Positions 2,622-51,971 of a DNA stretch of 61,630 nucleotides are shown here, one piece after another (within the stretch, counting starts at the first letter, position 1; each line of letters starts with the position of its first letter). This DNA is from a virus (taxonomy: Duplodnaviria; Caudoviricetes). The stretch covers positions 1 through 61,630 of IMG/VR virus record IMGVR_UViG_3300042549_001103; one strand, written 5' to 3'. The notes beneath the pieces were generated by a model. That model saw only the letters and a list, made by a program, of their open reading frames with translations, was not told the origin of the DNA and ran no database searches. Both the position numbers and the translations under genes were made by a program.

Positions 2622-3248
2622 ATGCCAAGATTTATAGATAGAGCAGGGAAGAGGTTTGAAAGACTGACCGTAATAGAAAGAGCTGGAACGAGTAAAAGCA
2701 AGAAGGTACTATGGCGTTGTATGTGCGATTGCGGAACAGAGACGGTTGTTGATACCTGTAGTCTGGTTACAAAAAATACAACGTCATGTGGCTGCTTACT
2801 GAAAGAAAAAATTACCAAGCATGGCGGTTGGAATAAAGGTTCTTACAATACATGGCGAGCAATGATTAGAAGATGTAACAACCCAGAAGACAAAGACTAC
2901 CCAAAATATGGTGGTAGGGGTGTGTCCGTGTGCCAACAATGGCTTGACTACACTATTTTTGCAAAAGATATGGGCGAGCCGCAAGGCGACGAGACGCTCG
3001 ATAGAATTGACACTTACGGAAACTATACGCCAGAAAATTGTAGGTGGGCTGGAGTAAAAACACAAAATAGGAACACAAGATTGCGTGTTAATAGCACGAC
3101 AGGTTTCACGGGGGTTTCTGTTGTTGGGAAAAAATTTCTAGCAAAAGTTACTGTTGGTAAGAAGGCATACTATTCAAAACTATGTAGCACTGTGGAAGAA
3201 GCCGCCGCTGCCCGCAAAGAACTTGAACTACTGCATTGGACAACGTAA
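2622..3248 (+). CDS. Free-standing HNH homing endonuclease with C-terminal AP2-like domain
   Basis: WxCxCDCG and TxSCGC motifs, YGGRG, TLDRIDTYGNYTPENCRW, then NSTTGFTGVS...EEAAAARK; AT-richer than its flanks. Confidence 0.85.
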   Translation: MPRFIDRAGKRFERLTVIERAGTSKSKKVLWRCMCDCGTETVVDTCSLVTKNTTSCGCLLKEKITKHGGWNKGSYNTWRAMIRRCNNPEDKDYPKYGGRGVSVCQQWLDYTIFAKDMGEPQGDETLDRIDTYGNYTPENCRWAGVKTQNRNTRLRVNSTTGFTGVSVVGKKFLAKVTVGKKAYYSKLCSTVEEAAAARKELELLHWTT

Positions 3249-3948: not shown

Positions 3949-6486
3949 ATGAGTTTAAATAAAGTTGCCAGCCATTTAGCTGCGCAAGGCCGTGGGCCTG
4001 ATACAACACTGGTACACATGTCACCCCGTGAGGTTGGTGCACTTCAAGGCATTGCTCGCCAGCATGGTGGCAGCTTAACAATTAATCCACAAACTGGGTT
4101 GGCTGAAGCTGGATTCCTTGATGCCATACTCCCTATGATTGCAGGTGCTGGGCTCAGTTTAATCCCCGGTGTCGGCCCACTCATGGCTGCGGGTATTGTC
4201 GGCGCGGGTACAGGACTGCTTACTAAGGATTTAAACAAGGGTCTGATGGCAGGTCTCGGCGCGTTCGGTGGCGCAAGCCTTGCTGGGGGCTTAATGAGTG
4301 CTGGTACTGCTGCTGGAAGTACCGCCGCTGCAGGTGAAGCTGCTACCGCCGTTGGGTCGTTGTATACCCCCGCTGAAATGGCTTCTATGCAGGCTGCTGG
4401 TATGACCCCCGCTCAAATTACTGCGTCTGCGGCTGACTTTGTAGGAGGCCCTTCTGGTATTGGCACTGCAAACATGCCGTTCTCACAAGCAACACAAAGT
4501 GCATTAAACAATCCGGCTACTGCGGGAATGAGCGAAATAGCTAAAGCCCCCGGCGAGTTCTTAAAAAAGAACATGTTCCCAATTGGTGCGGCAGCAGCTC
4601 CGTTGTTACTGGGTGGAGGTAACTTGCTTGGTGGCGGGAAGAAGGAAGAAGAGAAGTCCGACAGCTATATCCGTCCTCAGACATACTCACAGATACGCAA
4701 CCCGAATTACACTGGTGCGGGCACTCCGTACTTTACACAATCGTATACACCACAGACTCCAATCGTAGCTTCTGAGTATGGGGATCGGTCGTTCGCCGGA
4801 GGCGGTATTGTTGCTTTAGCTAAGGGTGGGTCTAGATCGTTTGCTGAAGAACAAGCTAGTCCCGGTGCTCTGGGCCAGCGTGATGACAACGACGCACCTA
4901 CAGTTCGAGAATTATTAGAAGTTCTTGGTGGTGATAAACGCGAAAAATACGAACGTTTAGCCAGTGGAGAAAAATTTAATCCTAAAGACTATTCCGATAA
5001 AGAAATACAAGCTGCAAAACTGTTGTTTGCTGCGAACAAAACCAAAGATCCTGAACGGTACCTGAGTTCACTTAGCCCATTTTATGATGCTCAACTTAAC
5101 TTTGCGTTGAAAAACACTAACTTGAGTGGGTTTGTTAACCTTCTAGAGCCGAACACCGCGGTTATTCGCAGCTTGACCGACTCGGCTGATACTGTTGCGC
5201 ATGAATTAACCCACACCCTACAATTGCATAACGAAGCTAAGGGTAACAAAATTGGTACAGAAATTTACCCTTATGTTCGTAAGTTAGATAGCGACCAACG
5301 GGATGAAGCATTTGGTAAAGCGCTTAACCGTTTTGATAGTCCAAGAGAAGTGTATGCAAATTTAAATACAGGAGCGTTGCTGGCAAGTACTGAAGGTGGA
5401 GATTTTGTAAATTCTTCGGCGGGCCGTGCATTGTTACCCGATAGAAAATCGCAAGGTGAATACTACGCAAACACAATGCCGGGGGTACAAAGCATTTATG
5501 GGTACCGAGAGGACTCAGAAATTCCCCAAGACAAGTTTAAACGTGACTCGCGGGATTCCTACGCGACGCAAGCTATGAAATACGCTAAACATAAAACACA
5601 AAAGAACGCTGCTGGTGGCGCAGTACATGCTTATGCAGAAGGTGGTACGGTTGACCCTCTTGGTATTGCTGCACTAGGCCCGCAATCGAGTGGAGAAAGT
5701 TTTGCACCTGTAATGACGTACGACCCTGTAACAAAACAATACGTGAACGCCGTACCCACTGCGGCTCCAATGCCAAACAACATGGTGTACGACCCTGTCA
5801 CTCAACGCTATGTAACTCCAACCCCCGACGCCACTGCGGGCTTATCTGCTATTGGTAATAACCAAGCCAACTATATGTACGACGGTGGTGGTGGTGATGT
5901 TAGTGGAAACTCTAATAGTATGGGAGATCAAGGAGACCCGGCGGGCGATGATGGCAGTGAAGGTGCTGATGGCGGTGATGATGGTAGTGATGGTAGTGAT
6001 GGCGGAAATCTAGCAGAAGGTGGTATTACTAATTCCAAGATGGCTGCGGTACAGAAGTATATGTCCCAAGCCCAAAGCAGCACACAAGGTATGCAGCAAG
6101 TACTGGCGCTTGCTAAAGCTGGGGATTACAACGCCTCGGTTGCTTTGAACCAATTAAATGCTAGTCCGAATCAGAACTACGCTATGGGTGGGGGTATTTC
6201 TTCGCTGGGTGGCTATTCTGATGGTGGGCGCATGCTAAAAGGCCCCGGAGATGGTGTGAGTGATAGTATCCCCGGAATAATCGGTGCTAAACAACCTGCT
6301 CGATTAGCTGATGGCGAGTTCGTAATTCCTGCCCGTATTGTTTCTGAGGTAGGTAACGGCTCGTCAGAAGCAGGCGCTAAGCGTTTCTACGCCATGATGG
6401 AGCGTATACAAGATGGGCGTAAAAAATCTATCGGTAAAGATAAAGTTGCGGTGGACTCTAAAGCATACAAACACCTGCCAGCATGA
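3949..6486 (+). CDS. Internal virion / ejection protein with repeated AxGG motifs and an inserted HExxH domain
   Basis: 845 aa; Gly/Ala-rich hydrophobic N-region; VAHELTH at ~5200; C-terminal GPGDGVSDSIP...LADGEFVIPA domain. Confidence 0.65.
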   Translation: MSLNKVASHLAAQGRGPDTTLVHMSPREVGALQGIARQHGGSLTINPQTGLAEAGFLDAILPMIAGAGLSLIPGVGPLMAAGIVGAGTGLLTKDLNKGLMAGLGAFGGASLAGGLMSAGTAAGSTAAAGEAATAVGSLYTPAEMASMQAAGMTPAQITASAADFVGGPSGIGTANMPFSQATQSALNNPATAGMSEIAKAPGEFLKKNMFPIGAAAAPLLLGGGNLLGGGKKEEEKSDSYIRPQTYSQIRNPNYTGAGTPYFTQSYTPQTPIVASEYGDRSFAGGGIVALAKGGSRSFAEEQASPGALGQRDDNDAPTVRELLEVLGGDKREKYERLASGEKFNPKDYSDKEIQAAKLLFAANKTKDPERYLSSLSPFYDAQLNFALKNTNLSGFVNLLEPNTAVIRSLTDSADTVAHELTHTLQLHNEAKGNKIGTEIYPYVRKLDSDQRDEAFGKALNRFDSPREVYANLNTGALLASTEGGDFVNSSAGRALLPDRKSQGEYYANTMPGVQSIYGYREDSEIPQDKFKRDSRDSYATQAMKYAKHKTQKNAAGGAVHAYAEGGTVDPLGIAALGPQSSGESFAPVMTYDPVTKQYVNAVPTAAPMPNNMVYDPVTQRYVTPTPDATAGLSAIGNNQANYMYDGGGGDVSGNSNSMGDQGDPAGDDGSEGADGGDDGSDGSDGGNLAEGGITNSKMAAVQKYMSQAQSSTQGMQQVLALAKAGDYNASVALNQLNASPNQNYAMGGGISSLGGYSDGGRMLKGPGDGVSDSIPGIIGAKQPARLADGEFVIPARIVSEVGNGSSEAGAKRFYAMMERIQDGRKKSIGKDKVAVDSKAYKHLPA

Positions 6487-6896
6487 AGATACAACACGTA
6501 GCGTTTAATTACGTAAATCAAGTATGGCCTGAGATTTCCGAGTACCTGAAGGCAGCAGTTGAAAAACAGCAGGGAGTGCCAGACTACACGCTGGAACAAG
6601 TTAAAGTTTATGTAACTACTGGGCAGTGGCTACTATTGGTTGCAGTTGACGATGAAAGTATAATACGTGGTGCGGCAACAGTAGACCTGTTTAACCGCCC
6701 ATCCCATCGGGTAGCGTTTGTTACGTGTGCTGGCGGACGGCTGATGTCAAACTTAGACTCTGCTGCGAATTTAAAATTAGTATTAAAAGGTTTTGGTGCT
6801 ACATCAATTGAATGCGCAGCTAATGGCAGCACAGAGCGGTTGTGGCAACGTCTAGGGTTTACCGAGAAATATAAGATACTTGAGGTAACAATATGA
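6483..6896 (+). CDS. Putative GNAT-fold acetyltransferase-like protein
   Basis: 137 aa; RLWQRLGF motif; sits between ejection genes, the position of T7 gp13-like genes; ATGA overlaps at both ends. Confidence 0.5.
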   Translation: MKIQHVAFNYVNQVWPEISEYLKAAVEKQQGVPDYTLEQVKVYVTTGQWLLLVAVDDESIIRGAATVDLFNRPSHRVAFVTCAGGRLMSNLDSAANLKLVLKGFGATSIECAANGSTERLWQRLGFTEKYKILEVTI

Positions 6897-9736
6897 ATTT
6901 AATCTCCACCATCAAAAGCCTATTTAATTACCTCACGTTATACATGGGGGGTGGGGGGTCTTCTGCACCAACTCAACAAAACGTTACCCAAACGTCCATC
7001 CCCGATTATGCGCGTCCATATGTTGAAACCGCGCTAGGTAAAACCGCTGCGCTGACAGACATCAATCAGAACCCTTATCAGCCGTACCAAGGGCAGCAAG
7101 TTGCAGACCTAAGCGCTTTACAGCAACAAGCTATGGGGTCTATCGGTGGGCAGCAAGTGGCTTCACAGCTGGGTGATGCAACCAACTTAGCTTATAACGT
7201 TGGACAGCAGGGCTTTAACGCAGGTAACGCTTACCGTCAGCAAGCCACCTCAGCGGATGCAATGAGTCAGTACATGTCGCCCTACATGCAGAATGTGGTA
7301 GATGTGCAGTCTCAAGAAGCCCGCCGTCAGGCAGACATTACCCGTCAAGGTACACAAGCACAAGCCGCTAGATCTGGCGCTTTCGGTGGGTCGCGTTCAG
7401 CTATTGTTCAAGCAGAGGGAGATCGTAATTTAGCCACACAACTCGGGCAGATCCAAGCTCAGGGTTCACAGAATGCGTTTCAACAGGCACAACAGGCACA
7501 ACAGTTTGGCGCAAACCTCGGGCTTCAGGGTCTAAATGCAGCGGGTTCCGCAGCCTCTACGTTGGGCGCTCTCGGTCAAACCCAGTTTGGTCAGCAGATG
7601 GGTATCAACCAAGCTCAAATGCAAGCTGGTGCACTGCAACAAGCTCAGCAACAACGTGGTTTGGACGTTGCATTCCAGCAGTATCAGGATCAGCTTAACT
7701 ACCCATACAAGCAGCTGGCGTTTCAATCGGATATGTTCCGTGGTTTGCCTCTGTCGCAAAGTGCTACAACTATGTACCAGAACACGGGCGCTATGGCTCC
7801 TCAGCTTTTGGGTGCAGGTATCGCAGCTTATGGTGCAACGCAGCGAGCCAAAGAAGGCGGCTTAATGAAAGGCTACGCCGAAGGCGGTATAACTACTGTT
7901 GACCCATCAGTGCCCTCGTCCATTGGCCCACAAGCCTTGTCTAACCGCTTAGCAAAACTCTCTGATGAGCAGTTAATGGCTTACGCCCGCACCGTTAAGG
8001 ATGCCGTGGCGCTCGCAGAAGTTAAAGGCGAGATTCAGCGCCGTCAAGAAGCCCGTGAACCGCAGGGCCAGATGCCAACAGGTACAGTAGCTCAAGGCAT
8101 CGCACCTAGCGAAGAGCAAGGACAGATGCAACCCCCAATGATGGCAGGTGGCGGTATTGTTGCTTTGGCTGGTGGTACAACGCCAGAAATCATAGAAGAC
8201 TTGGGGAAAGCAAACAAAGCACTAGGTAATACTCCTGAAGATAAAGAAAGACGCGACGCACTAGCCCAACTTAATAGGTCTGGTTCGTTATTTGGGTATG
8301 TGACACAACCCGGGGCGCAGCGCGCTGCTAATAGAGCTACTTTAGCTGAGTTACAAAATGCTCCAATAGAAGACATTAGAGCATACCGAGATACCGGAGC
8401 TATCCCACGTTCAGAAGACCCTTTTGGTACCCCTGCACAAATGGCTGCTTTAGAAGCATCAAACGCCCAAGAAGCCGAACGTCGCCAAGCTAACGCTCAA
8501 GCCCGTGCGCAAGGTTCTATGGCAGACAGCACAGATCCACTCGGGGACTCTTCCGCAGTACCACTCCCACCACCCCCAACAGAATTTCCAGAAGAAGGTG
8601 CGTCCCCCGTTACTGGCACTACTCCTTCTAGCGCACCTCCCGGCACCGTTCCCGGTGGTATTGTTCCTAGCCGTGCTCCTGCCGGGCAAGCTCCTGTCGC
8701 CGCCGCTCCTGCTGGTCAAGCTCCTGCGGGTCAAGCTCCTGCTGCGTCTACTGGTATCGTTTCTTCTTCTAAAGCTCCTACGGCAATGGCTACTGGTGCG
8801 ATCCCGATTGCTAATCCCGGTGATCCGATGGGTTGGGGTGCGTACAAGGCAAGCGTTGAAGACGCAGCTAAGCTTGATCCTGAGCAGAAAGCTGTTCTTG
8901 AAGACATGCGTAAACGTTCTGAACGCAAGATGGGTCGTGCCGAGAAGCAAGAAAAGAACGTGTTTAGTGAGTCATTAATTGCTGGTGGTTTGGCGATGAT
9001 GGGTGGTCTGAACTTGTCTGACGGTGTACGTCGCCTTGCCGAAGGTGGTGGTAAAAAGTACTTCGAGTCTTCTGCTGCAGCTAATAAAGCTATTGAAGCC
9101 GCTGATGATGCACAAAGCGCATTCGATCAGTACCAGTTGTCACTCAAGCAAGGCAACAAGAAAGTCGCTGCCGATATGTACGGCAAGTTCCATAACTCTA
9201 TGCTGGATTATCAGGGCAAGATTCAAGCGGCAAGTATCAGTGCAGCGGCAAGTGGTGCGGCTACAGCTGAAGCCGCTAAGTCCAGAACTGCAAATATGGA
9301 GATGCAAGAACGTCGTTACGATCTTGACCGTGATGCACTAATGCAGCGCCATGCAGAGAACGTGGCTGCACGGGAAAACGAGTTTAAAGTTCGTATGGAA
9401 CAAGAAGGCAATACCAAGATGTATCAGCAAATGCAATTACTAGATGGTAGGCAAAGAGATTTAATGGCGGAACGTCGCCTTACTGAAAAAACGGTTTATG
9501 ACCGTTATGCCACACAAATCGACCAGATAAGAATGGCGGAATCTACTGGTAAGCCGTTGTCAGAAGCTTTGCGCCGTCAGAAAGTGGCTCTCGAAGCACA
9601 AGTAAACGCTGACCTTATAGCCAAACTTGCACCCATTAATAAGCAATTAGAAGATGTGGTGCTTAGAAAAGGGGAAATGATGAATATTCCTGCCCCATCG
9701 TCTAGTGGTGGGTTTAGAATTGTCGGTGTACGATAA
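6893..9736 (+). CDS. DNA ejection / pilot protein
   Basis: 947 aa; MGGGGS...IPDYARPY N-terminus, Q-rich helices, GAFGGSR motif; RBS gaggt upstream. Confidence 0.65.
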   Translation: MNLISTIKSLFNYLTLYMGGGGSSAPTQQNVTQTSIPDYARPYVETALGKTAALTDINQNPYQPYQGQQVADLSALQQQAMGSIGGQQVASQLGDATNLAYNVGQQGFNAGNAYRQQATSADAMSQYMSPYMQNVVDVQSQEARRQADITRQGTQAQAARSGAFGGSRSAIVQAEGDRNLATQLGQIQAQGSQNAFQQAQQAQQFGANLGLQGLNAAGSAASTLGALGQTQFGQQMGINQAQMQAGALQQAQQQRGLDVAFQQYQDQLNYPYKQLAFQSDMFRGLPLSQSATTMYQNTGAMAPQLLGAGIAAYGATQRAKEGGLMKGYAEGGITTVDPSVPSSIGPQALSNRLAKLSDEQLMAYARTVKDAVALAEVKGEIQRRQEAREPQGQMPTGTVAQGIAPSEEQGQMQPPMMAGGGIVALAGGTTPEIIEDLGKANKALGNTPEDKERRDALAQLNRSGSLFGYVTQPGAQRAANRATLAELQNAPIEDIRAYRDTGAIPRSEDPFGTPAQMAALEASNAQEAERRQANAQARAQGSMADSTDPLGDSSAVPLPPPPTEFPEEGASPVTGTTPSSAPPGTVPGGIVPSRAPAGQAPVAAAPAGQAPAGQAPAASTGIVSSSKAPTAMATGAIPIANPGDPMGWGAYKASVEDAAKLDPEQKAVLEDMRKRSERKMGRAEKQEKNVFSESLIAGGLAMMGGLNLSDGVRRLAEGGGKKYFESSAAANKAIEAADDAQSAFDQYQLSLKQGNKKVAADMYGKFHNSMLDYQGKIQAASISAAASGAATAEAAKSRTANMEMQERRYDLDRDALMQRHAENVAARENEFKVRMEQEGNTKMYQQMQLLDGRQRDLMAERRLTEKTVYDRYATQIDQIRMAESTGKPLSEALRRQKVALEAQVNADLIAKLAPINKQLEDVVLRKGEMMNIPAPSSSGGFRIVGVR

Positions 9737-9755: not shown

Positions 9756-12700
9756 ATGCCGATCTATTCAATTGAAGGCCCTGATAAACGTATTTATGAC
9801 ATTGAGGGCCCTGAAGGGGCATCTGAACAAGATCTAATTTCCGCTGCGCAGCAATACGCTAAACAGACGCAGAGGCAGGAAAGAGACGAGCGTAGCGCAA
9901 AAGAACTAGCCGAAGCCGACGCTGCCGCGGTAAAAGCAAGAGAAGAGCTAAGTAAGCCAATACCAGAAGGTGGTTTTAAAGCCGCCGCTCGTGCCAGTCT
10001 TGAGCGTGTGCAGGGTGACATTGCTGGTGTTGCTGGACGTGCCGGTGCTGTTGATATTGATACAGCTGAGAAGTTTAAAACCGAAAAAGAAAAACGTGCT
10101 GGGGAGATTTTCCAAGGCACGGAAGATGGTTGGCTAGAATCCCCATGGACTAAATTTAAAGAGACGTTGGGTAGCTCGGTTGGCTACATGGCTGCTCCTA
10201 TTGTCGCTGGTGGCGTGGCTACGCTTGCTGGTGCGTCTGCCCCTATTTCACTCACCGCTGCTGGCTTGGCGTCACTTGCTCAGTTCACGGGTTCAAACCT
10301 GTCTAGGCAGATGCAAGAAAAGGGTCTTGGCTTAGCTGATACCGATCTACTGTCTGCGGGTGCTGCGGCTATCCCTCAAGCGGCACTGGACGTGGTGTCT
10401 TTTAGAATGCTGCCCGGTATTAACCGCATCTTTAAATCTGCTGGTAAAGAGTTATCAGAAGACCAACTTAAAGCTATCGCTCAACGCAACCTGCTAACGA
10501 ACGTAGGTATGAGTGGCGGTAAGATTGCCGGTGTCGAGGGTCTGACTGAAGTTGGTCAACAATTCCTTGAACGCTTACAAGCAGGCATCAGCACAACCGA
10601 TGCAGAAGCACGGGATGAATATTTAGAAAGCCTGATTGGTGGTGCGGTACTCGGTGGCGCTTTCGGCGGTGTAAGTGGTATTGGTGCGCGTGGTCGTGCA
10701 CGGTCAAAGTTAGAAGGTATTGAATCTAGACGTGCAGCGGAGGAAGAAGCTGCTGGTATTACCCCACAATACACAGGGCAAGGGGAGATGTTCCCCACAG
10801 AGTTACAGCAAGCTCAAGAAACTATTGCAGGTATACAAGGCCCTGCTGCACCAGAAGTAACTACTCCCGAACTCACCACTACCCCTGCTGGTGTTGCACC
10901 GGGACAAGGTGAATTATTTGGCCCTGCGTCTGGTGCCCAGCCTGATTTGTTTGGGGATACAATCCCTGCGCGTCAGGAACAGATAGAAGTTGACCCTTTT
11001 GAAGTAAGAGTCAAAGAGTTAACCGAAGAATTCATCGCTGCGGGAGTGCCCCCAAAACAAGCTGCAGTTGTTGCATTCCAACAAGCGCGTAATGAATCTC
11101 GGGATGACACACTCGCCACCATGCAAAGTGGGGTAGGGGCAGATCCTAGACAAGGCGCATTACAGTTTGCGCCCGCCGCACCGGAATCGGTTGCAAGTAA
11201 TCAGCCAATTACCCCCATGCAACGGGAAATGGGTTTTACTGCCGCGGAGTCCCAGCGCGAAGCACAAAAGCAAGCCCAGATAGAACAAATTGCGCGTCAG
11301 GCACAAATTCAAAACCAGCTACAACTTGCCGAAACCGACCTACAAGCTGCGGGGATTACGCCTGCTGCACCTACAGCGTTTCCTGCCGCACGTCAGGGGC
11401 AACCTACCCAACCTCAACAGATTGATTTGTTTAAGCGTGGTGAAGCCCCTAAGCCTTCACGCGGTGAGATGCTTCGTGCAGGAGTTGCACTTGAATCAGA
11501 AGTACCAGCACCTAGTCAACCTGCGGCTCTTATTACTGAAGAATCACTCGATGTACTCAAGCTACCAAAAGCAGCGGCGTTGCGTAAGCGGTTATTGGGT
11601 AAAGACATGAACGATCCGGCGCAGAGCCAGCAAGTCAACACTGAACTTCGTGCTGCACTGCAAAACCCCAACCTGCCGGACGATACTAGACAAGCAATTA
11701 AAGATGTGCTTCAGCAGTCAGAATTTACACGTCAAGACGAGATATTTGGCCCGCGTGGTGGTGTATTACCTCAACCTAAATCCTCAGCACAGGGAGCGCA
11801 AGATGCTAATCAGCGACCTACCCCTAAGCCACCCGCTCAGCCCGGAACAAGTCAGCCGCCTGTGGGAGTGGGTGGTGTGGGCGTCGGCACAGGAGCCGCA
11901 GGAAAGACTGGTACCGGAGGAGTTTCAGGAACTGGAAAGCGAGGATTGGCTGATACTGGTGGGGGAGCTAAATCTGACGCTGCTGGAGCAAAAGGTAAGC
12001 CCGCTACAGTAAGTAAAAAAGACGCCTACGCCGAAGGAGTTCAGTCAGCCAAAGACGGTCAATCCGCGCTAGGTAGCCCTTATCCTGAAGGTACTGCTGA
12101 GCATGAAGAATTTAGTAAAGGTTATTTAGATACTAAATACCCTAGCTCGAAAGCCAAACCAAAAACCGAAGCTAAGAAAGAAGCGCCTAAGAAACCCGAA
12201 GCTAAGAAAGAAGCGCCCAAAGCTCCGGTAGACCCGATTGCCGCACTGGTGCAACAGACTCAAGCAGCGATAGATAAGGCACCGAAGAAAGAAACTACGG
12301 AAGCAGCACCGGTAGCAGCTAAAGGGAAACCAGTTAGCGCGTTTGATGCGCCAATTGATGGAACTGTTAAACCACTTCCTAAAAACGAAAAGTTCGACCC
12401 TCTCATCAACACCGAAAGCGACAAAATTACTCCTCCGCTATCCGCTGCGGTGGAAAAGCTTCTTCGTGCGGGTGATCTTGTCGGTGCGCTGCGTGCGTAT
12501 GCCAAAGAGACTAGGGGTGTAGCTGGGCGTATCGCGATGCTCTTGTCTTCTGTTCTTGGTACTACGAAAGTATTTGTAGTCTCTGATGCCCAACTGAAAA
12601 AGATTATTAAAGATCGCACTGGTGTAGACGCAAATAAAACGGAAGGCGCGTACTTTTACCAAGGTAATGAAATCTTTATCAACGCTGATATTGGTCTAGA

Positions 12701-15700
12701 TGGGCATACGTTGCTACATGAGGCTGTACATGCTGCGACCAAACGGATACTCAGTAACCCAAACCATCCTGTTACTAAACAACTGACTAAGTTGTTTGAC
12801 GACGTAAAAGACAAGCTCGGTAAAGCCTACGGTGCCAAAAGTCTTGATGAATTTGTTGCTGAAGCTTTCGGCAACATGGAGTTCCGTACCGAGCTAGATA
12901 CTATCACGCCATCTGGTCAGCGTATTTCTGCACTGGCGCGGTTCGGTAACATCATTAGCAACATGGTACGCCGCCTTGTCGGTGCACAGCCTAAAGCGTT
13001 GGGTTCGGTAATGGACGAAACCGACCGGCTGATTGCATCTATTATTTCCCCTGCACCAGATGCGGTGTTGGGCATGGGGTACGAGCCTGTTGCGTTCTTG
13101 AACACTGCCGGTAAAGTTAATAAAGCACTCCCCGCGTTTACTGAGCGCACAGTAGATAGCTTCCATAAAGTGTTTACTAGCAGTGTGCCTGACTGGGTAA
13201 AGAAAGCGTTGCGCATGTCGCTGCCAAGTAACGCGCTCGAAGACATTGCTGTTAAGTATTTGCCCGAAGCTCCTGAGTATGAGAAGTTAATTAACGCACG
13301 TAGTGGTGCAGAGCAGAAACTCACAAAGGCGGTCAACGCCTCTCTTACTCGCGCCGAGCAGTGGGCTGCAAAGCAACCACAAGCCAAGATCGACAACTTT
13401 AACAACGTCGTAAACTCCAGTACGCTCAAGCAGGTAGATCCTAGTAAGCCAATGTCAGCGTATGAGAAGGACGCGGAGAAGCTTAAAGCGTGGAAAGAGC
13501 TAGAGCCTAAATGGAAAGCTCTCGGTGTTGATGGGCAAAAGATGTACACCGACTTACGTGACTCGTACAAAACTCTGTATGACAAGATTGCTGATCTACT
13601 TAAAGTCAAGATGGACGGCGAGATGGGTAGTGCCGGTGCCGCAAAAGCCGTTAATGATGCACTGCGCAAAATCATGGACAACGCTGGCAAGATAGAGCCG
13701 TACTTCCCGTTGACCCGTGTGGGTGATTTTTGGTTGGAGTACAACGCACTTGCCCCGGACGGTAAATCTACAGAGAAGTATGTAGAATCGTTTGAGACTC
13801 CCCGTGCCCGTGCCCGTGCTATAGAGGAACTGAAAAAAGATTCTAGCGTAAAAAATATTACGCCGTTCGCTAAGCCGACAATGAAGACTTACCGTAACGC
13901 ACCTAGCGGTTCGTTTATGAGTAGTGTGCTGCAGACCCTAGAGCTAAACAAAGTATCAGACACGACTACCGAAGAGATTATGAATCTGTTCTTAAACGTG
14001 ATGCCTGAGACAGCGTTTGCTCAATCATTTCGGCAACGTGAGGGTGTGTTAGGATTTAACGCAGATGCTATAAGCGCCATGCGTTTGCGCACTCCTGCTA
14101 TCGGGCGTCAGCTAGTGAACCTAGAGTACGGTGCTAAGTTGTCCCGCCTTAATTCTAAGATGCAAGAGTCGGCTAAAGCCAGTAGAGATGACACCGCGAA
14201 AGCGTTTGCGGCTGAGTACGATAAGCGCATTCAGTTAGCAAATAGTCCAGATAACCCAGCATGGTCGCAAGTTAGTAAGACGTTTGCTTTCGGTATGACC
14301 CTCGGGTTTAACGTCTCTTCCGCACTGGTTAACGTAACGCAAATACCACTGGTCGTTATGCCCTATCTGGGTGGTAAATACGGATACGGAGATACTGCTT
14401 CTGCGATAGCTCGTGCAACGCGTGTGTTTATGGGTAGTGGTTTTAGCCGGACAGATAAAGACTTGTTAGGGCAAGATACTGAAGCGCGCGCAGCACCATC
14501 GTTGGAGAACATCGACTTCAGTAAAGCCCCTGCAAAGATGAAACACTACGCAACACTAGCACGACTCGCTGGTGATAACGGTGTGTTTGGTCGCTCGTTA
14601 ACACAGGACATACTGAACGTCGATGGTAGCGTACCCTTACTTGACAAAGTAAATGCGGTGTCTGGGTTTGTGTTTCACCACGGTGAGCGCATGAACCGAC
14701 AGATCGGTATGATCGCAACGTACGACCTCGAACTCAAGCGTATGAAAGATAAGCCTACCGCTCCTGAGAAAGGTATGAATGAGGCTCAGAGGGAAGAAGC
14801 TGCAGCGATAAACGCTATTAATATGACCAACCTGCTTAACGGCAGCTCGTCTACCGCCGGTGCGCCACGTATCGCACAGAACGCGCTTGGTTCGGTTGCG
14901 CTTATGTATAAACGTTACGGCGTGTCTATGTACTACATGATGTTTAAGACAGCACGTGAAGCGTTGAAGTCTCAGGATTCAAAGGTACGAAAAGCCGCGA
15001 TGTTACAGATAGGAGGTATTTTTGGTTCAGCTGCGTTGATCGCCGGAGTGCGTGGCGTACCTATGTTTGGTGTAGCTGCACTTTTATACGACATGGCTAA
15101 AGACGATGACGAAGATGATTTCCGCACGGTCGTAAACAAGTGGGTCGGTGCCACCGCGTACAGTGGTGGGTTAAACGCCATAACTGGACTTGAGATTGGT
15201 TCGCGTGTTGGGTTAAGTGATTTGCTCTTCCGTGACAACAACTCAAAACCTGACCAGTCCACGATCCTATCCATGGTTGAGATGCTTGGAGGCCCTGCAC
15301 TGGGTATTGGATTACGCGCCGAGCGGGGTATAAAGATGATTAACGATGGGGAAGTCTCCCGTGGTATCGAGCAGATGTTACCCGCTGCATTCGGTAACGG
15401 ACTTAAAGCTTTGCGTTACGCCACCGAGGGTGCTACCACTGTGCGTGGTGATCCAATTATGGATGAGGTTAGCGCATGGAACGTTGCGGGTCAGGCGTTT
15501 GGTTTTGCACCTGCCGAATACACTCGACAGCTTGAGATTAACGCTAATGAGAAGGGTAAGGATAAAGCCACAACAGAAGCTAGAACTAAACTCTTGCGTA
15601 AGTTCTACACTGCTACACGCTTAGGTGATTCTTCAGAAGCACAGGATGTCATGGAAGATATTGTGAAGTTTAATTCCAAGCATCCGTCGATTGCGATCAC

Positions 15701-15830
15701 TGGGTCAACAATTAAAGACTCTATGAAAAAACACGCTCAAACATCTATGATGATGCAAAAGGGTGTGGTCTACAACAAGAAGCGGTACTCCGAAGTGATG
15801 CAGAGTCTGTCAGAGTTTAACGAGGATTAA
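9756..15830 (+). CDS. Giant internal virion protein (large polyvalent protein-like) with zincin-like HExxH domain
   Basis: 2024 aa; TLLHEAVHAAT...EFVAEAF metallopeptidase-like region; last gene of the late arm; RBS aggag. Confidence 0.7.
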   Translation: MPIYSIEGPDKRIYDIEGPEGASEQDLISAAQQYAKQTQRQERDERSAKELAEADAAAVKAREELSKPIPEGGFKAAARASLERVQGDIAGVAGRAGAVDIDTAEKFKTEKEKRAGEIFQGTEDGWLESPWTKFKETLGSSVGYMAAPIVAGGVATLAGASAPISLTAAGLASLAQFTGSNLSRQMQEKGLGLADTDLLSAGAAAIPQAALDVVSFRMLPGINRIFKSAGKELSEDQLKAIAQRNLLTNVGMSGGKIAGVEGLTEVGQQFLERLQAGISTTDAEARDEYLESLIGGAVLGGAFGGVSGIGARGRARSKLEGIESRRAAEEEAAGITPQYTGQGEMFPTELQQAQETIAGIQGPAAPEVTTPELTTTPAGVAPGQGELFGPASGAQPDLFGDTIPARQEQIEVDPFEVRVKELTEEFIAAGVPPKQAAVVAFQQARNESRDDTLATMQSGVGADPRQGALQFAPAAPESVASNQPITPMQREMGFTAAESQREAQKQAQIEQIARQAQIQNQLQLAETDLQAAGITPAAPTAFPAARQGQPTQPQQIDLFKRGEAPKPSRGEMLRAGVALESEVPAPSQPAALITEESLDVLKLPKAAALRKRLLGKDMNDPAQSQQVNTELRAALQNPNLPDDTRQAIKDVLQQSEFTRQDEIFGPRGGVLPQPKSSAQGAQDANQRPTPKPPAQPGTSQPPVGVGGVGVGTGAAGKTGTGGVSGTGKRGLADTGGGAKSDAAGAKGKPATVSKKDAYAEGVQSAKDGQSALGSPYPEGTAEHEEFSKGYLDTKYPSSKAKPKTEAKKEAPKKPEAKKEAPKAPVDPIAALVQQTQAAIDKAPKKETTEAAPVAAKGKPVSAFDAPIDGTVKPLPKNEKFDPLINTESDKITPPLSAAVEKLLRAGDLVGALRAYAKETRGVAGRIAMLLSSVLGTTKVFVVSDAQLKKIIKDRTGVDANKTEGAYFYQGNEIFINADIGLDGHTLLHEAVHAATKRILSNPNHPVTKQLTKLFDDVKDKLGKAYGAKSLDEFVAEAFGNMEFRTELDTITPSGQRISALARFGNIISNMVRRLVGAQPKALGSVMDETDRLIASIISPAPDAVLGMGYEPVAFLNTAGKVNKALPAFTERTVDSFHKVFTSSVPDWVKKALRMSLPSNALEDIAVKYLPEAPEYEKLINARSGAEQKLTKAVNASLTRAEQWAAKQPQAKIDNFNNVVNSSTLKQVDPSKPMSAYEKDAEKLKAWKELEPKWKALGVDGQKMYTDLRDSYKTLYDKIADLLKVKMDGEMGSAGAAKAVNDALRKIMDNAGKIEPYFPLTRVGDFWLEYNALAPDGKSTEKYVESFETPRARARAIEELKKDSSVKNITPFAKPTMKTYRNAPSGSFMSSVLQTLELNKVSDTTTEEIMNLFLNVMPETAFAQSFRQREGVLGFNADAISAMRLRTPAIGRQLVNLEYGAKLSRLNSKMQESAKASRDDTAKAFAAEYDKRIQLANSPDNPAWSQVSKTFAFGMTLGFNVSSALVNVTQIPLVVMPYLGGKYGYGDTASAIARATRVFMGSGFSRTDKDLLGQDTEARAAPSLENIDFSKAPAKMKHYATLARLAGDNGVFGRSLTQDILNVDGSVPLLDKVNAVSGFVFHHGERMNRQIGMIATYDLELKRMKDKPTAPEKGMNEAQREEAAAINAINMTNLLNGSSSTAGAPRIAQNALGSVALMYKRYGVSMYYMMFKTAREALKSQDSKVRKAAMLQIGGIFGSAALIAGVRGVPMFGVAALLYDMAKDDDEDDFRTVVNKWVGATAYSGGLNAITGLEIGSRVGLSDLLFRDNNSKPDQSTILSMVEMLGGPALGIGLRAERGIKMINDGEVSRGIEQMLPAAFGNGLKALRYATEGATTVRGDPIMDEVSAWNVAGQAFGFAPAEYTRQLEINANEKGKDKATTEARTKLLRKFYTATRLGDSSEAQDVMEDIVKFNSKHPSIAITGSTIKDSMKKHAQTSMMMQKGVVYNKKRYSEVMQSLSEFNED

Positions 15831-31883: not shown

Positions 31884-33062
31884 TTAGTTAATGTGTACGT
31901 ACTTACCCACGCTTGGACGTGCGCCCTTGTTATTCTGAATACACCACAGCACAGGCGTTGTCCACGCGCCCCATGAGCCACCGAGATACCCATCGGTCAG
32001 CACCACTACTGCTTGCGGCTTAATGCCATGCTCTGCAATGTACTGAGGCACACACTCAACTGTTGTGCCACCACCCCCTGCGGGTTTAGTCGATGTGGTC
32101 AGGCGATCAAGATCATCTTGCTCATACACTTCATCACGACACACCTCAGTATCCCAGTACAACAAGCGCACCTTGGATGGGTGCACCGTATCGCAGATAG
32201 CCTTAACCTCCGACAAGAAGGATGACAGTTCCCTTGCGCCGATAGAGCCTGATGTGTCGATAGCCAACACCAACTCACCGACTGACTCACTGATACCCGA
32301 TGGTAAGTAATAGCCTGATGACATATACCTACGGTTAGGCTTGCGCCATGTAGAGTAATCGTTACCAGTGCACGTGGTTGATACAAACTCACGCAGCACC
32401 TCACGCCAATCTATCTGTGGTTGTAACAGTCCGTCCATGTCACGATTACCACCGCTACCCATCTTGCCCGCAGACAGCACACCTTGACGTATCGCCTTGT
32501 CAATCTCGCGCTCCAGTTCTTTGCTTTCGGCATCGCTCATCTCTTGAGCATCATCCCACCCATGCTCATCCATGCTACCCCCACCACCCCCACCACCCCC
32601 ACCGCCCTCGTCATCATCTTGCTTGAGTAAGTGGTAGACCTCGGCGCTATCCATATCACGATACTTTGTGTTGAGTAGTCCGACCTTGGGCATCACGATA
32701 AACTTCTTGCCGTTATCACCATCGACGAGCTTGACGTTAATCACGTAGTCACACGCCATATTTGCAAGGCGTGCGTTGTCCTCGTACAGATGTCGCCATG
32801 TCGTGATGTGCCTATACATCTTATGGTATGCCTCGTGCAGCACAAGAAAGCGCAGCTCTGCATCGCTCAAGCTCTCAACAAACTTGCGACCATACACTTC
32901 GTCACGCCCGTTGGTGTACGCCGTGGGTGTCTTATCACATACTGACTTGTCACCAATCATTAGCACTGGTGCGATAGCGTAGTAGTGCGGTTCAGCCATG
33001 ATGTCGATGACTGCCTTGTTCAGTCGCTGCTCGACTGTGAGTTGTTTACCTAGCATTAACAT
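31884..33062 (-). CDS. Metallopeptidase-like plus VWA domain protein (DUF2201-type)
   Basis: TAYTNG, LHEAYH, ANMACDYVIN; poly-Gly linker; MIDAS DTSGS; GGGGT; LTDG. Confidence 0.85.
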   Translation of the reverse strand: MLMLGKQLTVEQRLNKAVIDIMAEPHYYAIAPVLMIGDKSVCDKTPTAYTNGRDEVYGRKFVESLSDAELRFLVLHEAYHKMYRHITTWRHLYEDNARLANMACDYVINVKLVDGDNGKKFIVMPKVGLLNTKYRDMDSAEVYHLLKQDDDEGGGGGGGGGGSMDEHGWDDAQEMSDAESKELEREIDKAIRQGVLSAGKMGSGGNRDMDGLLQPQIDWREVLREFVSTTCTGNDYSTWRKPNRRYMSSGYYLPSGISESVGELVLAIDTSGSIGARELSSFLSEVKAICDTVHPSKVRLLYWDTEVCRDEVYEQDDLDRLTTSTKPAGGGGTTVECVPQYIAEHGIKPQAVVVLTDGYLGGSWGAWTTPVLWCIQNNKGARPSVGKYVHIN

Positions 33063-33266: not shown

Positions 33267-34352
33267 TTAAGCCTTGTCGGCTGTGAACAAGTAGTTGTTA
33301 GCCATTGCCCACGTTGTGAACTTCTTGTTAGTCATCACGATGTTCTTGCGTGAGTACTTCTCTTGCCGTACACCGTTGGCAAACATACCCTGTGACTCCT
33401 TATCCATACGCATCATGTAGTCCATCCATGGGTCAACCCACTCACGCTCGATGTTAGTCAGCGCACGGAACACGACCATACACTTGACCGCAGCCGACGT
33501 TGGTAGTGCCGCACCCATCGGGTCTTTCTTAATAGACTCAAGGCTTGGCAACTCATCGGCTAACTTCACGAACGCCATCAGATCAAGGGCTGCACGTTCG
33601 CCTATCGTACCCATGAGTAACGCTGTCAACGATTGGTCATCGTAATGTTCGCGCTGTTTGAGCCAGTCCGATGCAGACTCCAATGAACGTGGTGTCACGA
33701 ACGCCTCGCGCTGCTGCTGTGGGTGAAAGATGTACGGGTTGTCCTCGGGTGTCTTGACCTCATCGAACGATTGAAACAATGCGGGGGTGTCCTTGCAGAA
33801 ACCCAGTAACGTGTGATCTATGCCATTGTTGATACCCCACTCGACCCACTCGATATGTGTAGGCTTGCGTGATGTCACAAGAGTCATGCGGTTACGTGCA
33901 TGGGGTGGTACTAAGTCACCTACACCCTCTGCGCCTAGGTTAGTGGTTGCGAACACAAGCCCACGCAGATCATACGAGCCGATCTTGCGCTCTAAGATAA
34001 TACGTAGCATTGCGTTCTTGACCGCAGGGTTAGCCTTACCGAACTCGTCGATCATTAAGATGATGGGCTTATTCAAGTGCACACCCAACTCTTCGTTCGG
34101 CACAAAGCGCACGAACCCTTGCTCGTCCATAGTTTGTAAGCTAGGAATGCTGATGTCGCCCAAGTCCTTAGTCGTGCAGTCAAAGTAGCAGGGCGTGTGG
34201 TCGGGTAACAACTTAGCGAGTGTCTTGAGCAGGGATGACTTACCCGTACCCATGTGTCCTCGCACAAGCACCGTGTTGTCGTAGCCACCATGCAAGATGG
34301 CGTTACTGATTTGGTCAAGTGACAGGGCGTATAGAGATGTAGCTGATGCCAT
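33267..34352 (-). CDS. MoxR-like AAA+ ATPase
   Basis: GHMGTGKS, LMIDE, ATTN, ARNR, TPRS. Confidence 0.85.
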   Translation of the reverse strand: MASATSLYALSLDQISNAILHGGYDNTVLVRGHMGTGKSSLLKTLAKLLPDHTPCYFDCTTKDLGDISIPSLQTMDEQGFVRFVPNEELGVHLNKPIILMIDEFGKANPAVKNAMLRIILERKIGSYDLRGLVFATTNLGAEGVGDLVPPHARNRMTLVTSRKPTHIEWVEWGINNGIDHTLLGFCKDTPALFQSFDEVKTPEDNPYIFHPQQQREAFVTPRSLESASDWLKQREHYDDQSLTALLMGTIGERAALDLMAFVKLADELPSLESIKKDPMGAALPTSAAVKCMVVFRALTNIEREWVDPWMDYMMRMDKESQGMFANGVRQEKYSRKNIVMTNKKFTTWAMANNYLFTADKA

Positions 34353-48338: not shown

Positions 48339-48632
48339 ATGGCAATGCAAACTGACGTTAAAAGCGAACATACCAACGGCACACAAACCAATCAAGCCCT
48401 TATTACCGGTCGTGTTCGGGTTAAGGCTGTGGTTATTACTGGTGGCGTTGGCGCTGGCAAGGCTAGATTTTTAGACGCTTCTGGCGGAAACATTCTTTTA
48501 GAGCTAGATACAGGGTCAAACTCAAACATGACTAATGTCATTTTGCCGGGGGAAGGAATTTTGTTCCCTAACGGCGTTTGGTATACCTCGGTATCCGTTG
48601 CTCCTCTTGGCGTTACGGTTATTTATGGCTAA
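48339..48632 (+). CDS. Small structural protein
   Basis: LPGEGILFPNGV; RBS aggag. Confidence 0.65.
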   Translation: MAMQTDVKSEHTNGTQTNQALITGRVRVKAVVITGGVGAGKARFLDASGGNILLELDTGSNSNMTNVILPGEGILFPNGVWYTSVSVAPLGVTVIYG

Positions 48633-48880: not shown

Positions 48881-49120
48881 ATGGAAGATACAGTGCAAAC
48901 AGCTCGCGAACTAGCTACGCATGCTAATGAAATAAAACATATCCAGTTTGACATGGATAGGGTTTTAGAAGAACTTGATGCCATGAAAACAACGATTGAC
49001 TCTATTAACCAAAAGCTTGACCGAGCTGAAGGCGGATGGAAAACCTTAATCTGGATTGGCGGGCTTGCCACAAGCGTCACCGGTATTATTGGTTATATTA
49101 TTGGACAAGTTCGAGGTTAA
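48881..49120 (+). CDS. Coiled-coil protein with C-terminal TM segment
   Basis: GGWKTLIWIGGLATSVTGIIGYII. Confidence 0.65.
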   Translation: MEDTVQTARELATHANEIKHIQFDMDRVLEELDAMKTTIDSINQKLDRAEGGWKTLIWIGGLATSVTGIIGYIIGQVRG

Positions 49121-49121
49121 T

Positions 49122-49535
49122 ATGCCAGCCACCTCTGCAAAACAAAAGAAGTTCATGGATGCGGCAGCAAACAACCCTGCGTTCGCTAAGAAGGTCGGTG
49201 TACCGGTTAAAGTAGCAAAAGAATATTCACAGGCCAGTAAAGGCCAATCTTTTAAGGAAGGTGGCGTTATGAAAAACGATATGAAACAAGACAAATCAAT
49301 GGCTAAGAAAGCTGTTGGCATGCACGAGTCACAGTTGCACGGTGGCAAGAAGTCAGATATGTCCAAGCTCAAGAAGGGCGGCATGCCTATGGCTATGAAA
49401 GACGGTAAAAAAGTCCCAGCATTCGCAGCTAAGAGCGGTGGCATGACTAAGATGGCTCGCGGCGGTGGCATTGAGTCCAAGGGTAAGACCAAAGGCACAA
49501 TGATTAAGATGAAGTCTGGCGGCAAAACTTGCTAA
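49122..49535 (+). CDS. Small Lys/Met-rich protein with KxGG repeats
   Basis: FKEGG, LKKGG, AKSGG, MARGG, MKSGG. Confidence 0.7.
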   Translation: MPATSAKQKKFMDAAANNPAFAKKVGVPVKVAKEYSQASKGQSFKEGGVMKNDMKQDKSMAKKAVGMHESQLHGGKKSDMSKLKKGGMPMAMKDGKKVPAFAAKSGGMTKMARGGGIESKGKTKGTMIKMKSGGKTC

Positions 49536-49543
49536 GGTGACGT

Positions 49544-49885
49544 ATGAAAAAGATGACCCAAGATGATATTGACGCCGGGCTAACACAAGAAGATGTTAAT
49601 CTTGGGTTGCGTGGGAAAGTGATTAAGGGCGGTAGCGACGCAGCTATGAAGTCGCGTATGGCTTCGGAAAAGTACGATAGCCCGAGCATCGTTGACCAGT
49701 ACCGTGATCTTAAAAAGAACCCCCCAGCTAAAGCTTTTTCTGTTGCTGAGCCTATTGGTGCGCGCAAGGGCGGAGCGGTTAAAATGGCAAAAGGCGGTTC
49801 AGCCTCAAGCCGTGCTGATGGCTGCGCTATGAAAGGCAAGACCAAAGGCATGATGGTCAAGATGAAGTCCGGTGGGATGTGTTGA
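49544..49885 (+). CDS. Small basic protein with xGG repeats
   Basis: ARKGG, MAKGG, RADGCAMKGKTKG, MKSGG. Confidence 0.7.
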   Translation: MKKMTQDDIDAGLTQEDVNLGLRGKVIKGGSDAAMKSRMASEKYDSPSIVDQYRDLKKNPPAKAFSVAEPIGARKGGAVKMAKGGSASSRADGCAMKGKTKGMMVKMKSGGMC

Positions 49886-49886
49886 G

Positions 49887-50162
49887 ATGAGAGCCTCTCG
49901 CGGAATGGGCGATATTAACCCGTCTAAAATGCCCGGAGCTAAGAAAGCTAAGCGCAAAGACGGCGATGAGTTTGCCATGTACGCCGAGGGCGGCAAAGTA
50001 AATGCCGCTGGCAACTACACCAAGCCTAGCTTGCGCAAGAAGATTGTGTCTCAAGTTAAAGCCGCAGCTACGCACGGCACAGGCGCTGGTCAATGGAGCG
50101 GTAGAAAGGCACAGCTAGTGGCTAAGAAATATAAAGCAGCAGGCGGCGGGTATCGTGATTAA
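49887..50162 (+). CDS. Small basic protein
   Basis: YAEGG; GQWSGRKAQLVAKKYKAAGGGY. Confidence 0.7.
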   Translation: MRASRGMGDINPSKMPGAKKAKRKDGDEFAMYAEGGKVNAAGNYTKPSLRKKIVSQVKAAATHGTGAGQWSGRKAQLVAKKYKAAGGGYRD

Positions 50163-51505: not shown

Positions 51506-51688
51506 ATGTATAAACGTGGCGCAGATGGCGTAGCAAAGAAAGGTAAAACTGAGGGTAAGAATCTCGGTAATGATGGCCCAAAGGTCGGCATGATGCATGG
51601 TGGAAAAAAGACCGCTGGTGTCAAAAACATCGACTTAAAAACGATGGGTCGTGGCTTGGCGAAGGTCAAGAACCAAAAAGGTGGTTGA
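51506..51688 (+). CDS. Small basic protein
   Basis: RGADGVAKKGKTEG, MMHGG. Confidence 0.65.
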   Translation: MYKRGADGVAKKGKTEGKNLGNDGPKVGMMHGGKKTAGVKNIDLKTMGRGLAKVKNQKGG

Positions 51689-51689
51689 T

Positions 51690-51971
51690 ATGGCTAAATT
51701 TAGTCAAAAACTAATGGGTAAAGAAGTTGGCTCGGCAGCGGTTTATGCTGAACCCCACACAATGAAAGGTGGCCCTGTGAACGTAAAAGAATCTATTAGC
51801 CGTAAGCCCGACCCGAACACCTTAAAGGCAACGGATGTAAATTGTTGCACCCCTGCTATGCGTGTTAGCACTGGAGATCCAGCCCGTGAAGATGTCAAAA
51901 CTACCGGCATTAAGATTCGTGGTACCGGCTGCGCGACGAAAGGCACAATGGCTCGTGGGCCAATGGGTTAA
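51690..51971 (+). CDS. Small basic protein
   Basis: TMKGG; RGTGCATKG. Confidence 0.65.
   Translation: MAKFSQKLMGKEVGSAAVYAEPHTMKGGPVNVKESISRKPDPNTLKATDVNCCTPAMRVSTGDPAREDVKTTGIKIRGTGCATKGTMARGPMG

Follow-up and report, generated by a model that had tools for sequence, protein, structure and literature searches.

A conserved double-glycine motif at the seams of injected proteins of an uncultured phage, a possible maturation signal of the tape measure type

Why does one short motif ending in Gly-Gly recur in two neighbouring ejection proteins of a phage and again in its small basic proteins? The question is raised by positions 3949 to 9736 of the virus record IMGVR_UViG_3300042549_001103, which was analysed over its whole length of 61,630 bp (the window). 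This region includes two long open reading frames (ORFs), ORF3949 and ORF6893, whose products carry the motif repeatedly; its definition, [FYML][AK]xGG, was fixed after inspection of the sequence. The motif is real, strongly conserved and located at the seams of injected proteins. As to its function, we consider it about as likely as not, and likelier than any rival, that it is a tape-measure-type maturation cut or joint signal which has spread to other joints. The proteins in question and their motif copies are as follows.

3949..6486, plus strand: ORF3949, a tape-measure-like ejection protein of 845 amino acids (aa), no Pfam or PHROG match
4792..4830, plus strand: double motif FAGGG-IVA-LAKGG, residues 282-294, closing the conserved N-terminal part of ORF3949
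4831..5604, plus strand: variable middle module of ORF3949, residues ~295-552, with the HExxH string HELTH at 418-422
5605..5646, plus strand: double motif NAAGG-AVHA-YAEGG, residues 553-566, at which the variable module ends
6010..6024, plus strand: LAEGG, residues 688-692, ahead of a three-helix segment (692-739)
6178..6483, plus strand: C-terminal junction unit of ORF3949, residues 744-845, with YAMGG, YSDGG, GPGDGVSDSIPG...ARLADGEFVIPARIV, an amphipathic helix and the end ...HLPA
6893..9736, plus strand: ORF6893, an ejection protein of 947 aa, residues 26-315 matching phrog_4287 'DNA ejection protein' (E 8e-15)
7847..7888, plus strand: double motif AKEGG-LMKG-YAEGG, residues 319-332, at the end of the ORF6893 N-terminal domain
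8141..8176, plus strand: MAGGG-IVA-LAGG, residues 417-428, the form that the family element [bulky]AxGGIVAFAxGG takes here
9035..9049, plus strand: LAEGG, residues 715-719 of ORF6893
49119..49535, plus strand: basic protein of 138 aa (from MPATS..., ORF 49056/49119) with FKEGG, LKKGG, MARGG and MKSGG, ending ...GGKTC
49544..49885, plus strand: basic protein of 113 aa with MAKGG and MKSGG, ending ...GGMC
49872..50162, plus strand: basic protein of 96 aa with YAEGG, phrog_17747
51506..51971, plus strand: two basic ORFs of 60 and 106 aa (51506-51688 and 51651-51971) with the variants MMHGG and TMKGG only

Every motif string that a preliminary description of this DNA had listed for the two ejection proteins was found in its place: FAGGG282-IVA-LAKGG290, NAAGG553-AVHA-YAEGG562, LAEGG688, YAMGG744 and YSDGG756 in ORF3949, and AKEGG319-LMKG-YAEGG328, MAGGG417-IVA-LAGG and LAEGG715 in ORF6893. 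The same description had placed the motif in five small basic proteins at 49-52 kb; three of them carry the strict form (4, 2 and 1 copies), and the other two have only MMHGG and TMKGG. In a set of 77 ORFs, which comes from a greedy ORF call and is not a curated annotation, [FYML][AK]xGG occurs 16 times as compared to 3.77±1.91 in 2000 whole-protein shuffles (largest 11). These copies belong to ORF3949 (5), ORF6893 (3), the three small basic proteins (4/2/1) and a 1066-aa ORF at 54413 (1). All 16 are in late genes and none is in the minus-strand early/replication block (~16-39 kb). The five main proteins hold 15 copies, while local shuffles of 10, 20 or 40 residues gave 1.2±1.1 (largest 6), and 0 of 2000 reached 15. 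Glycine content, which had been named as a possible explanation of the motif frequency, therefore does not explain it.

The consensus can be written as bulky-A-x-G-G-[I/G]-[I/V/T/A], frequently doubled 8-9 residues apart. Both the bulky position and the x position vary among family members while the motif itself is kept.

Conservation of the motif was followed in homologues of ORF3949, of which there are more than 6271, all metagenomic, 470-990 aa long and many of them on 60-66 kb contigs. We retrieved 240, and 169 passed a two-ended full-length filter (71 were dropped as partial or divergent). The full-length proteins have on average 3.28 copies of [FYML]AxGG (range 1-6), compared to 0.31±0.04 after shuffling, and the copy number grows with protein length: proteins shorter than 500 aa average 2.85 copies, those longer than 850 aa 5.0. 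In 160 of the 169 a motif lies 24-32 aa upstream of SDxI, a part of the C-terminal unit.

Related loci were fetched from IMG/VR with the C-terminal profile (80 loci, 78 usable). Their gene order is constant: a tail gene of ~700-800 aa, a small ORF, the ORF3949-like gene, a gene of ~135-150 aa, an ORF6893-like gene (whole or split) and a giant gene of 2000-2500 aa. Motif copies in these loci, with the shuffled expectation, were counted for each class of genes.

ORF3949-like genes: 214 copies, 22.3±5.2 shuffled
ORF6893-like genes: 140 copies, 18.9±4.7 shuffled
Upstream ORFs: 30 copies, 22.3±4.8 shuffled
Small downstream ORFs: 1 copy, 0.7 shuffled
Giant proteins: 5 copies, 10.3±3.1 shuffled

Within these loci the motif is enriched solely in the ORF3949-like and ORF6893-like genes, not in the tail genes or the giant. 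In five near-complete relatives the small basic ORFs downstream of the capsid gene hold 27 copies (1.65±1.34 expected), and the remaining ORFs there 1 (1.0 expected). The idea of a genome-wide tag thus gives way to a narrower one, with the motif confined to two ejection-protein families and small basic proteins. In the ORF6893 family it is part of the extended element '...LP...[bulky]AxGGIVAFAxGG'. A degenerate DNA pattern for AxGGIVAFA matched at least 120 IMG/VR stretches, and the context '...LP...[bulky]AxGGIVAFA' is present in 79 of the 80 loci read.

What kind of virus carries these proteins? According to Pfam and PHROGs, the late genes include those for the large terminase, portal, a 302-aa HK97-type capsid protein, two SU10-type (podovirus) adaptor proteins, tail-fibre-like proteins and a holin. 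Portal proteins 33-40% identical to its own occur in Pelagibacter phages HTVC027P and HTVC023P, DSL-LC04, MinM2/Pag-Yong1, roseophages CRP-901 and CRP-902, and Caulobacter phages RW and GB2A. Compared with phage records by megablast, the region itself gave no match. The virus is an uncultured short-tailed phage, and the ORF3949 and ORF6893 products are probably injected together with its DNA.

ORF3949 consists of a conserved N-terminal part with hydrophobic Gly-zipper helices (residues 1-294), a swappable middle and the C-terminal junction unit. The Gly-zipper helices are visible both in the sequence and in the AlphaFold2 (AF2) model. Nearly all of 119 homologues align with ORF3949 in BLAST over residues 1-~294 and ~745-845, and just 8 over 310-540. 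The ends of the BLAST segments cluster at residues 290-295 (58 ends) and 309-310 (26 ends), that is at or just after FAGGGIVALAKGG; the phage DSL-LC04 protein has a matching 13-mer pattern, FANGGIASLAKGG. Homology to other family members picks up again at ~536-599, around the second double motif. The HExxH middle module has no sequence match in PDB and no family match, and 10 of 28 long homologues scanned have DUF4214 in its position. The three-helix segment following LAEGG688 (residues 692-739) was modelled with a predicted local distance difference test score (pLDDT) of ~90.

Over the 169 full-length proteins, 26% of 30,628 internal BLAST segment ends fall within 5 aa of a motif, compared to 6.8% of random positions; other GG pairs, which are 3.3-fold more numerous, reach 19.7% by the same measure. 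The view that the motifs stand at boundaries between segments, where variable domains are swapped, is largely borne out by this clustering. As a conserved motif tends to anchor alignment ends, the boundary data indicate the last conserved element before divergence and no more than that.

Two further conserved features were observed in the ejection proteins. ORF3949 residues 14-57 (3949-4120) form a near-invariant N-terminal box, GRGxDxxLVHMxPxEVxxLQxLAxxHGGSLTINPxTGLPE, which is also present inside the DSL-LC04 protein (~residues 165-200). Residues 1-22 of ORF6893 (6893-6958) and of its orthologues form a conserved leader of ~18 residues (M..L.K.LF.P.WF.F.M) running into GGGG(G), which recalls the gp7 leader of phage P22.

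The link to tape measure proteins comes from the C-terminal junction unit. It has 45 invariant columns among 41 sequences whose N-terminal parts are ~50% identical. A profile of the unit matches 11,580 cluster representatives at E≤0.001 and 2,417 at E≤1e-30, and among the 150 matches listed all 150 have it at the extreme C-terminus. Using tblastn, residues 742-838 at the ORF3949 C-terminus matched 8 phage records. With the final 110 residues of the homologue from DSL-LC04 there were 417 matching records, nearly all of them annotated as siphophage tape measure proteins (phages of Mycobacterium 112, Gordonia 89, Arthrobacter 42, Burkholderia 39, Vibrio 32 and Pseudomonas 25). We read 13 of the 417: xAxGG is located 14-26 residues before the SD of the box in 11, variants (FAGG, KKDGG) take its place in 2, and the box lies 105-135 residues from the C-terminus in 6 and internally in the remainder. 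The likeness of the terminal domain to tape measure proteins, which the preliminary description had pointed out, is therefore a real one.

The module that is shared with siphophages can be described as [F/R/K]AxGG-x(2-15)-GPGTGTSDSIPAxLSxGE[FY]V and is found in JBD88a, Vibrio PG28, Burkholderia FKKS2, Morganella Henu15, Klebsiella phi_270 and actinophages. ORF3949 has the GPGxGxSDxIPAxLxxGE[FY]V box, an upstream xAxGG and a near-C-terminal position of both in a long protein with hydrophobic segments. It differs from the siphophage proteins in the podovirus-type neck of its phage, in the two motif copies within the unit and in a clade-specific C-terminal helix with the ...HLPA end. HTVC027P gp82 has a divergent unit with a single YADGG. 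ORF3949 is not a tape measure protein in the strict sense: its gene lies between tail-fibre-like and ejection genes, the neck has SU10 adaptors, and Pfam and PHROGs gave no match to a tail tube or a chaperone. It acts like the injected part of a tape measure protein and not like a ruler.

Pfam, PHROGs and NCBIfam have nothing for ORF3949 or its C-terminal unit, and Pfam covers neither motif nor box in the lambda, Burkholderia, Vibrio, Morganella and T5 proteins. ESM Atlas returned nothing but viral clusters without names and one weak lead, at 0.83, to crAss cargo, and PDB sequence searches gave low-complexity noise or nothing. AF2 models were made for ORF3949 residues 680-845 and for a 362-aa minimal homologue; with 45 or 120 aligned sequences pLDDT was ~40-69 for the C-terminal unit and ~37-50 at the motifs. 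Foldseek found nothing in PDB at E≤0.001 for the model of the minimal homologue. A complex prediction with three copies of residues 734-845 (score 0.01, mark 0.42) is evidence neither way.

Is a motif of this kind cut in any known phage protein? In phage T5, passages of Linares et al. (2023, PMC10038345) on pb2 place its cut by mass spectrometry 'after R1127'. We located R1127 on the GenBank T5 record AY543070 and found the sequence ...NSFVP-R1127-A-E-G-G-MMYPG..., one of 2 matches to the relaxed pattern in 1219 aa; the released piece, pb2C, has 92 residues. Both pb2 and ORF3949 have a hydrophobic channel-forming part, the [R/bulky]-A-x-G-G string and a C-terminal piece of ~90 residues (92 in T5, 89 in ORF3949 if cut at YSDGG). 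T5, however, has a long tail and one such site, whereas ORF3949 has 7 candidate sites and its phage further copies in other proteins.

The other precedent is the ruler protein gpH of lambda, for whose cut a 1983 work by Tsui and Hendrix is cited. Passages of a 2025 Ur-lambda paper (PMC12617516) put the cut, which yields gpH* and gpHC, in the Gly-rich C-terminal region ~120-140 residues from the C-terminus, give both its site and its catalyst as unknown, and name the T5 and lambda proteins as the only rulers known to be cut. In lambda gpH we found ...KFH-FATGG-FTGTGGKYEPAGIVHRGEFVFTKEATSRIGVGNLYRLMRG-YATGG..., with FATGG733 and YATGG778 around a GEFV box; unlike the ORF3949 unit, the lambda box lacks the SDSIPA half. 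The Burkholderia FKKS2 tape measure protein has two FATGG copies, and in BLASTP it is the second, past the box, that aligns with lambda FATGG733; from this register the motif-plus-box unit seems to be tandem or shifted among lambda-like rulers. Passages of the JBD30 paper that concern a cut only speculate about one. Our literature searches, which covered texts without supplements (such as the T5 figure S5G), found no description of the motif as a conserved signal.

Comparison with phage P22 and with polyvalent proteins involves two neighbours of the ejection genes.

6483..6896, plus strand: ORF of 137 aa between the two ejection genes, without the motif; by eye acetyltransferase-fold-like (...RLWQRLGF...), as judged from its sequence only
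9756-15830: giant polyvalent protein (ORF9756) of 2024 aa, with LPD39 and a DarB-like part in the C-terminal 700 residues

The P22 record gives a 20-residue gp7 leader removed by the host OpdA; the leader ends in ...YPE20 and is followed by KGGKGG. Thus a host peptidase trims an ejection protein directly before a Gly-Gly pair, and ORF6893 starts with ~18 residues and then GGGG. The gene order 14-7-20-16 of P22 also has a small gene without the motif ahead of the ejection genes, with the 137-aa ORF standing at the gene 14 place. Nevertheless, there is no similarity to gp14, and the P22 ejection proteins lack a repeated motif. Phage-type polyvalent proteins are injected, consist of many modules and have swappable domains; Iyer et al. 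(2017, PMC5512222) predicted their processing by built-in metallopeptidase (zincin) domains and considered LPD39 'potentially enzymatic'. The motif-bearing proteins of our phage mostly have no metallopeptidase domain, though, and its polyvalent giant, which carries LPD39 and the DarB-like C-terminus, has no motif. The word 'glycine' is absent from the main text of Iyer et al.

The preliminary description had drawn an analogy with adenovirus and ubiquitin-like proteases. The adenovirus protease cuts core proteins after the Gly-Gly of (M/L/I)xGG-x sites. Small basic internal proteins with a hydrophobic residue followed by Gly-Gly are a common point, but in our motif this residue is one position further from GG (P5, not P4), and the T5 cut is located before Ala and not after GG. 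The analogy fails on this register and also on the lack of such a protease among the 63 proteins scanned against Pfam.

The following model would bring these observations together. ORF3949 may be the counterpart of a tape measure protein in a short-tailed phage: an injected, channel-forming protein which ends in a siphophage-type junction module. This module consists of [bulky or basic residue]-A-x-G-G followed by GPGxGxSDSIPAxLSxGEFV, and the short motif would be a signal at its edge. A cut between Y756 and SDGG would free 89 residues, just as the cut between R1127 and AEGG frees the 92-residue T5 piece. Within the clade the signal could have spread so as to flank the swappable modules of ORF3949, the domain joints of ORF6893 and the small lysine-rich proteins encoded past the capsid gene. 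All these proteins would be made as multi-part precursors and trimmed or separated between the bulky residue and AxGG, either during assembly or after injection; the cutting, the bond and the agent are all inferred. The cut might be made by a peptidase of the host, as happens with the gp7 leader of P22, or by the conserved C-terminal unit.

A number of observations weigh against cutting. Pfam scans found no protease tied to virion genes. The T5 link is one mapped site, with hhalign comparison of pb2C and the box not significant (E 0.41); the lambda GEFV part is only weakly similar to the ORF3949 unit (E 0.005, probability 6.8%), and P22 gp7 is cut in another register. The copies themselves are often placed where cutting would achieve little. 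Their tandem spacing is 8-9 aa, and minimal homologues without an inserted module keep 2-3 copies within ~30 aa. In small proteins the motif can sit 2-3 residues from the C-terminus (...GGKTC), where a cut frees tiny peptides, and the split ORF6893-like genes (19 loci) have a first half ending 12-25 aa past an xxGG motif. The HExxH module of ORF3949, a potential enzyme, is common to only ~8 of 119 homologues. Capsid, portal and scaffold-like proteins have 0 motifs in the 77-ORF set, and the giant orthologues, although expected to be processed, are the sole large injected proteins here avoiding the motif (5 copies, 10.3 shuffled).

Could the motif work without being cut? A serious, if less probable, alternative is that the motif is a hinge or docking element in disordered linkers, made of bulky and small residues with a Gly-Gly turn and often I-V-A, and retained in the mature proteins. 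It might allow the modules to pack and then thread the tail channel, or it might dock by strand addition, either on further copies of itself or on a conserved partner. AF2 confidence is low (pLDDT ~37-50) exactly at the motifs and at the near-invariant C-terminal unit, which is typical of segments that fold on binding. The copies are tandem and multivalent and persist in minimal proteins, they are kept in split genes and beside C-termini where cutting is pointless, and the ORF6893 family has the extended specific consensus [bulky]AxGGIVAFAxGG. Tandem copies, retention in split genes, near-terminal copies and the motif-poor giant fit a hinge or a docking site equally well or better than cutting. 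On the other hand, the one mapped site in a motif-bearing protein, that of T5, is a cut, no partner was identified for docking, and the motif coincides with homology breakpoints, though a hinge would do so too. We find it unlikely that the motif is an encapsidation tag which binds the capsid interior, scaffold or portal and so brings ejection proteins and small basic proteins inside the procapsid. Precedents for such loading tags are the T4 capsid-targeting sequence and the encapsulin cargo peptides. The motif is indeed common to otherwise unrelated proteins all expected inside the head, and the capsid protein is 81-90% identical across 5 relatives while the ejection proteins are far more diverged. 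But tape measure proteins with the same motif are loaded into tails and not heads, the copies are mostly internal, at joints, and not terminal, and the giant, which also needs packaging, has none.

Two explanations dispense with a function of the peptide altogether. The motif DNA could serve as a recombination linker, a conserved boundary for module swaps, as module exchange does take place at the motifs and the window has exactly two copies of the 17-mer GGCGGTATTGTTGCTTT, at 4801 and 8150 (0 expected in 100 shuffles). Such sharing at the DNA level was described earlier and stands for this pair of sites, but it is not general: the longest word common to ORF3949-like and ORF6893-like genes has a median of 12 nt and reaches ≥15 nt in 3 of 67 loci, as compared to 2 of 40 in a control with the giant gene. 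Shared DNA words being scarce, it is the peptide and not the DNA that is under selection. The motif is also kept despite varied x and bulky residues. We consider a DNA linker very improbable, being refuted, if weakly, by the 67-locus comparison. A chance by-product of glycine- and alanine-rich composition is more improbable still. The motif-bearing proteins are 10-16% glycine and the motif was defined post hoc; yet the observed count was never attained by shuffling, whether over whole proteins or locally, independent homologues and loci show the enrichment again, and tail proteins just as rich in glycine have no copy. Shuffles together with the homologue and locus counts refute it.

If the cut or joint signal does operate, an enzyme has to be accounted for. 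The system does not belong to the prohead-protease class: Pfam and PHROGs found no head protease between the portal and capsid genes, in agreement with the earlier remark that no canonical one is visible, and the 302-aa capsid protein, read by eye, has no long N-terminal extension. There was no Pfam match to a clan CE cysteine protease among the 63 proteins either. The only Pfam peptidase-type match in the genome is an early gene next to an ATPase gene.

31884-33062, minus strand: DUF2201_N putative metallopeptidase with a VWA domain; 14 GG pairs, no motif
33267-34352, minus strand: AAA (MoxR-like) ATPase, an early gene adjoining the DUF2201_N/VWA gene

The early DUF2201_N/VWA protein, the sporadic HExxH module and LPD39 are weak candidates for the cutter. 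Since no phage protease is evident, we infer a host enzyme or self-cleavage. It is a rather improbable version of the latter that the SDSIPA/GEFV unit is itself a self-processing module, cutting between the bulky residue and AxGG of the adjacent site and, in this clade, of the same tag in companion proteins. If true, this would account for the lack of an assigned protease in lambda, T5 and our phage, as well as for the invariant Ser, Asp, Glu and Arg in a unit without a stable predicted fold of its own.

Some other candidates were rejected. The acetyltransferase-like gene was dropped as the enzyme of the motif, as some of the loci lack it or have another gene in its place, and neither a Cys nor a His is conserved in it. 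An ORF of 120-165 aa without the motif takes this position in 63 of 78 loci, sometimes from another family; the 137-aa ORF itself has no Pfam or NCBIfam match, and it was with this ORF that BLASTP found no similarity to P22 gp14. RTX-type calcium repeats, lipobox and prepilin sites were dismissed by eye, their defining residues being missing. A HEAVH string is located within the LPD39 match of the giant protein (residues 1154-1286).

The small basic proteins have features of their own. The first 46 residues of the 138-aa protein (MPATSAKQKKFM..., 49119-49260) match phrog_16759 and also two long 'virion structural protein' PHROGs at their N-termini; they form a portable N-terminal domain, which could be the true head-targeting part. 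A tblastn search with the 138-aa protein gave no match. Many of those encoded past the capsid gene have a C-terminal cysteine (...WKC, ...GGKTC, ...GGMC), as at 48535-48879, 49119-49535 and 49544-49885 of the window; in the five relatives it is present in 10 of 30 basic ORFs and in 0 of 33 other ORFs, and one of the proteins with this ending is a DUF6321 protein. Apart from DUF6321, phrog_16759, phrog_17747 and the 'virion structural protein' N-termini, Pfam, PHROGs and NCBIfam have nothing on the small basic proteins. Two genes of another kind interrupt the blocks of structural genes; they probably encode homing endonucleases and are mobile.

2622-3248 and 52645-53298: HNH/endonuclease VII-type genes inside structural gene blocks

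Overall, the motif holds the mapped T5 site, flanks the relevant region of lambda gpH and recurs in hundreds of tape measure proteins. It gives a testable prediction for the lambda cut, either between F733 and A734 or between Y778 and A779. It also connects the rulers of long-tailed phages with ejection proteins of short-tailed phages from the environment, which make up a very large clade, for the most part uncultured. If the motif is indeed a general seam of injected phage proteins, their domain boundaries and mature products would become readable from sequence.

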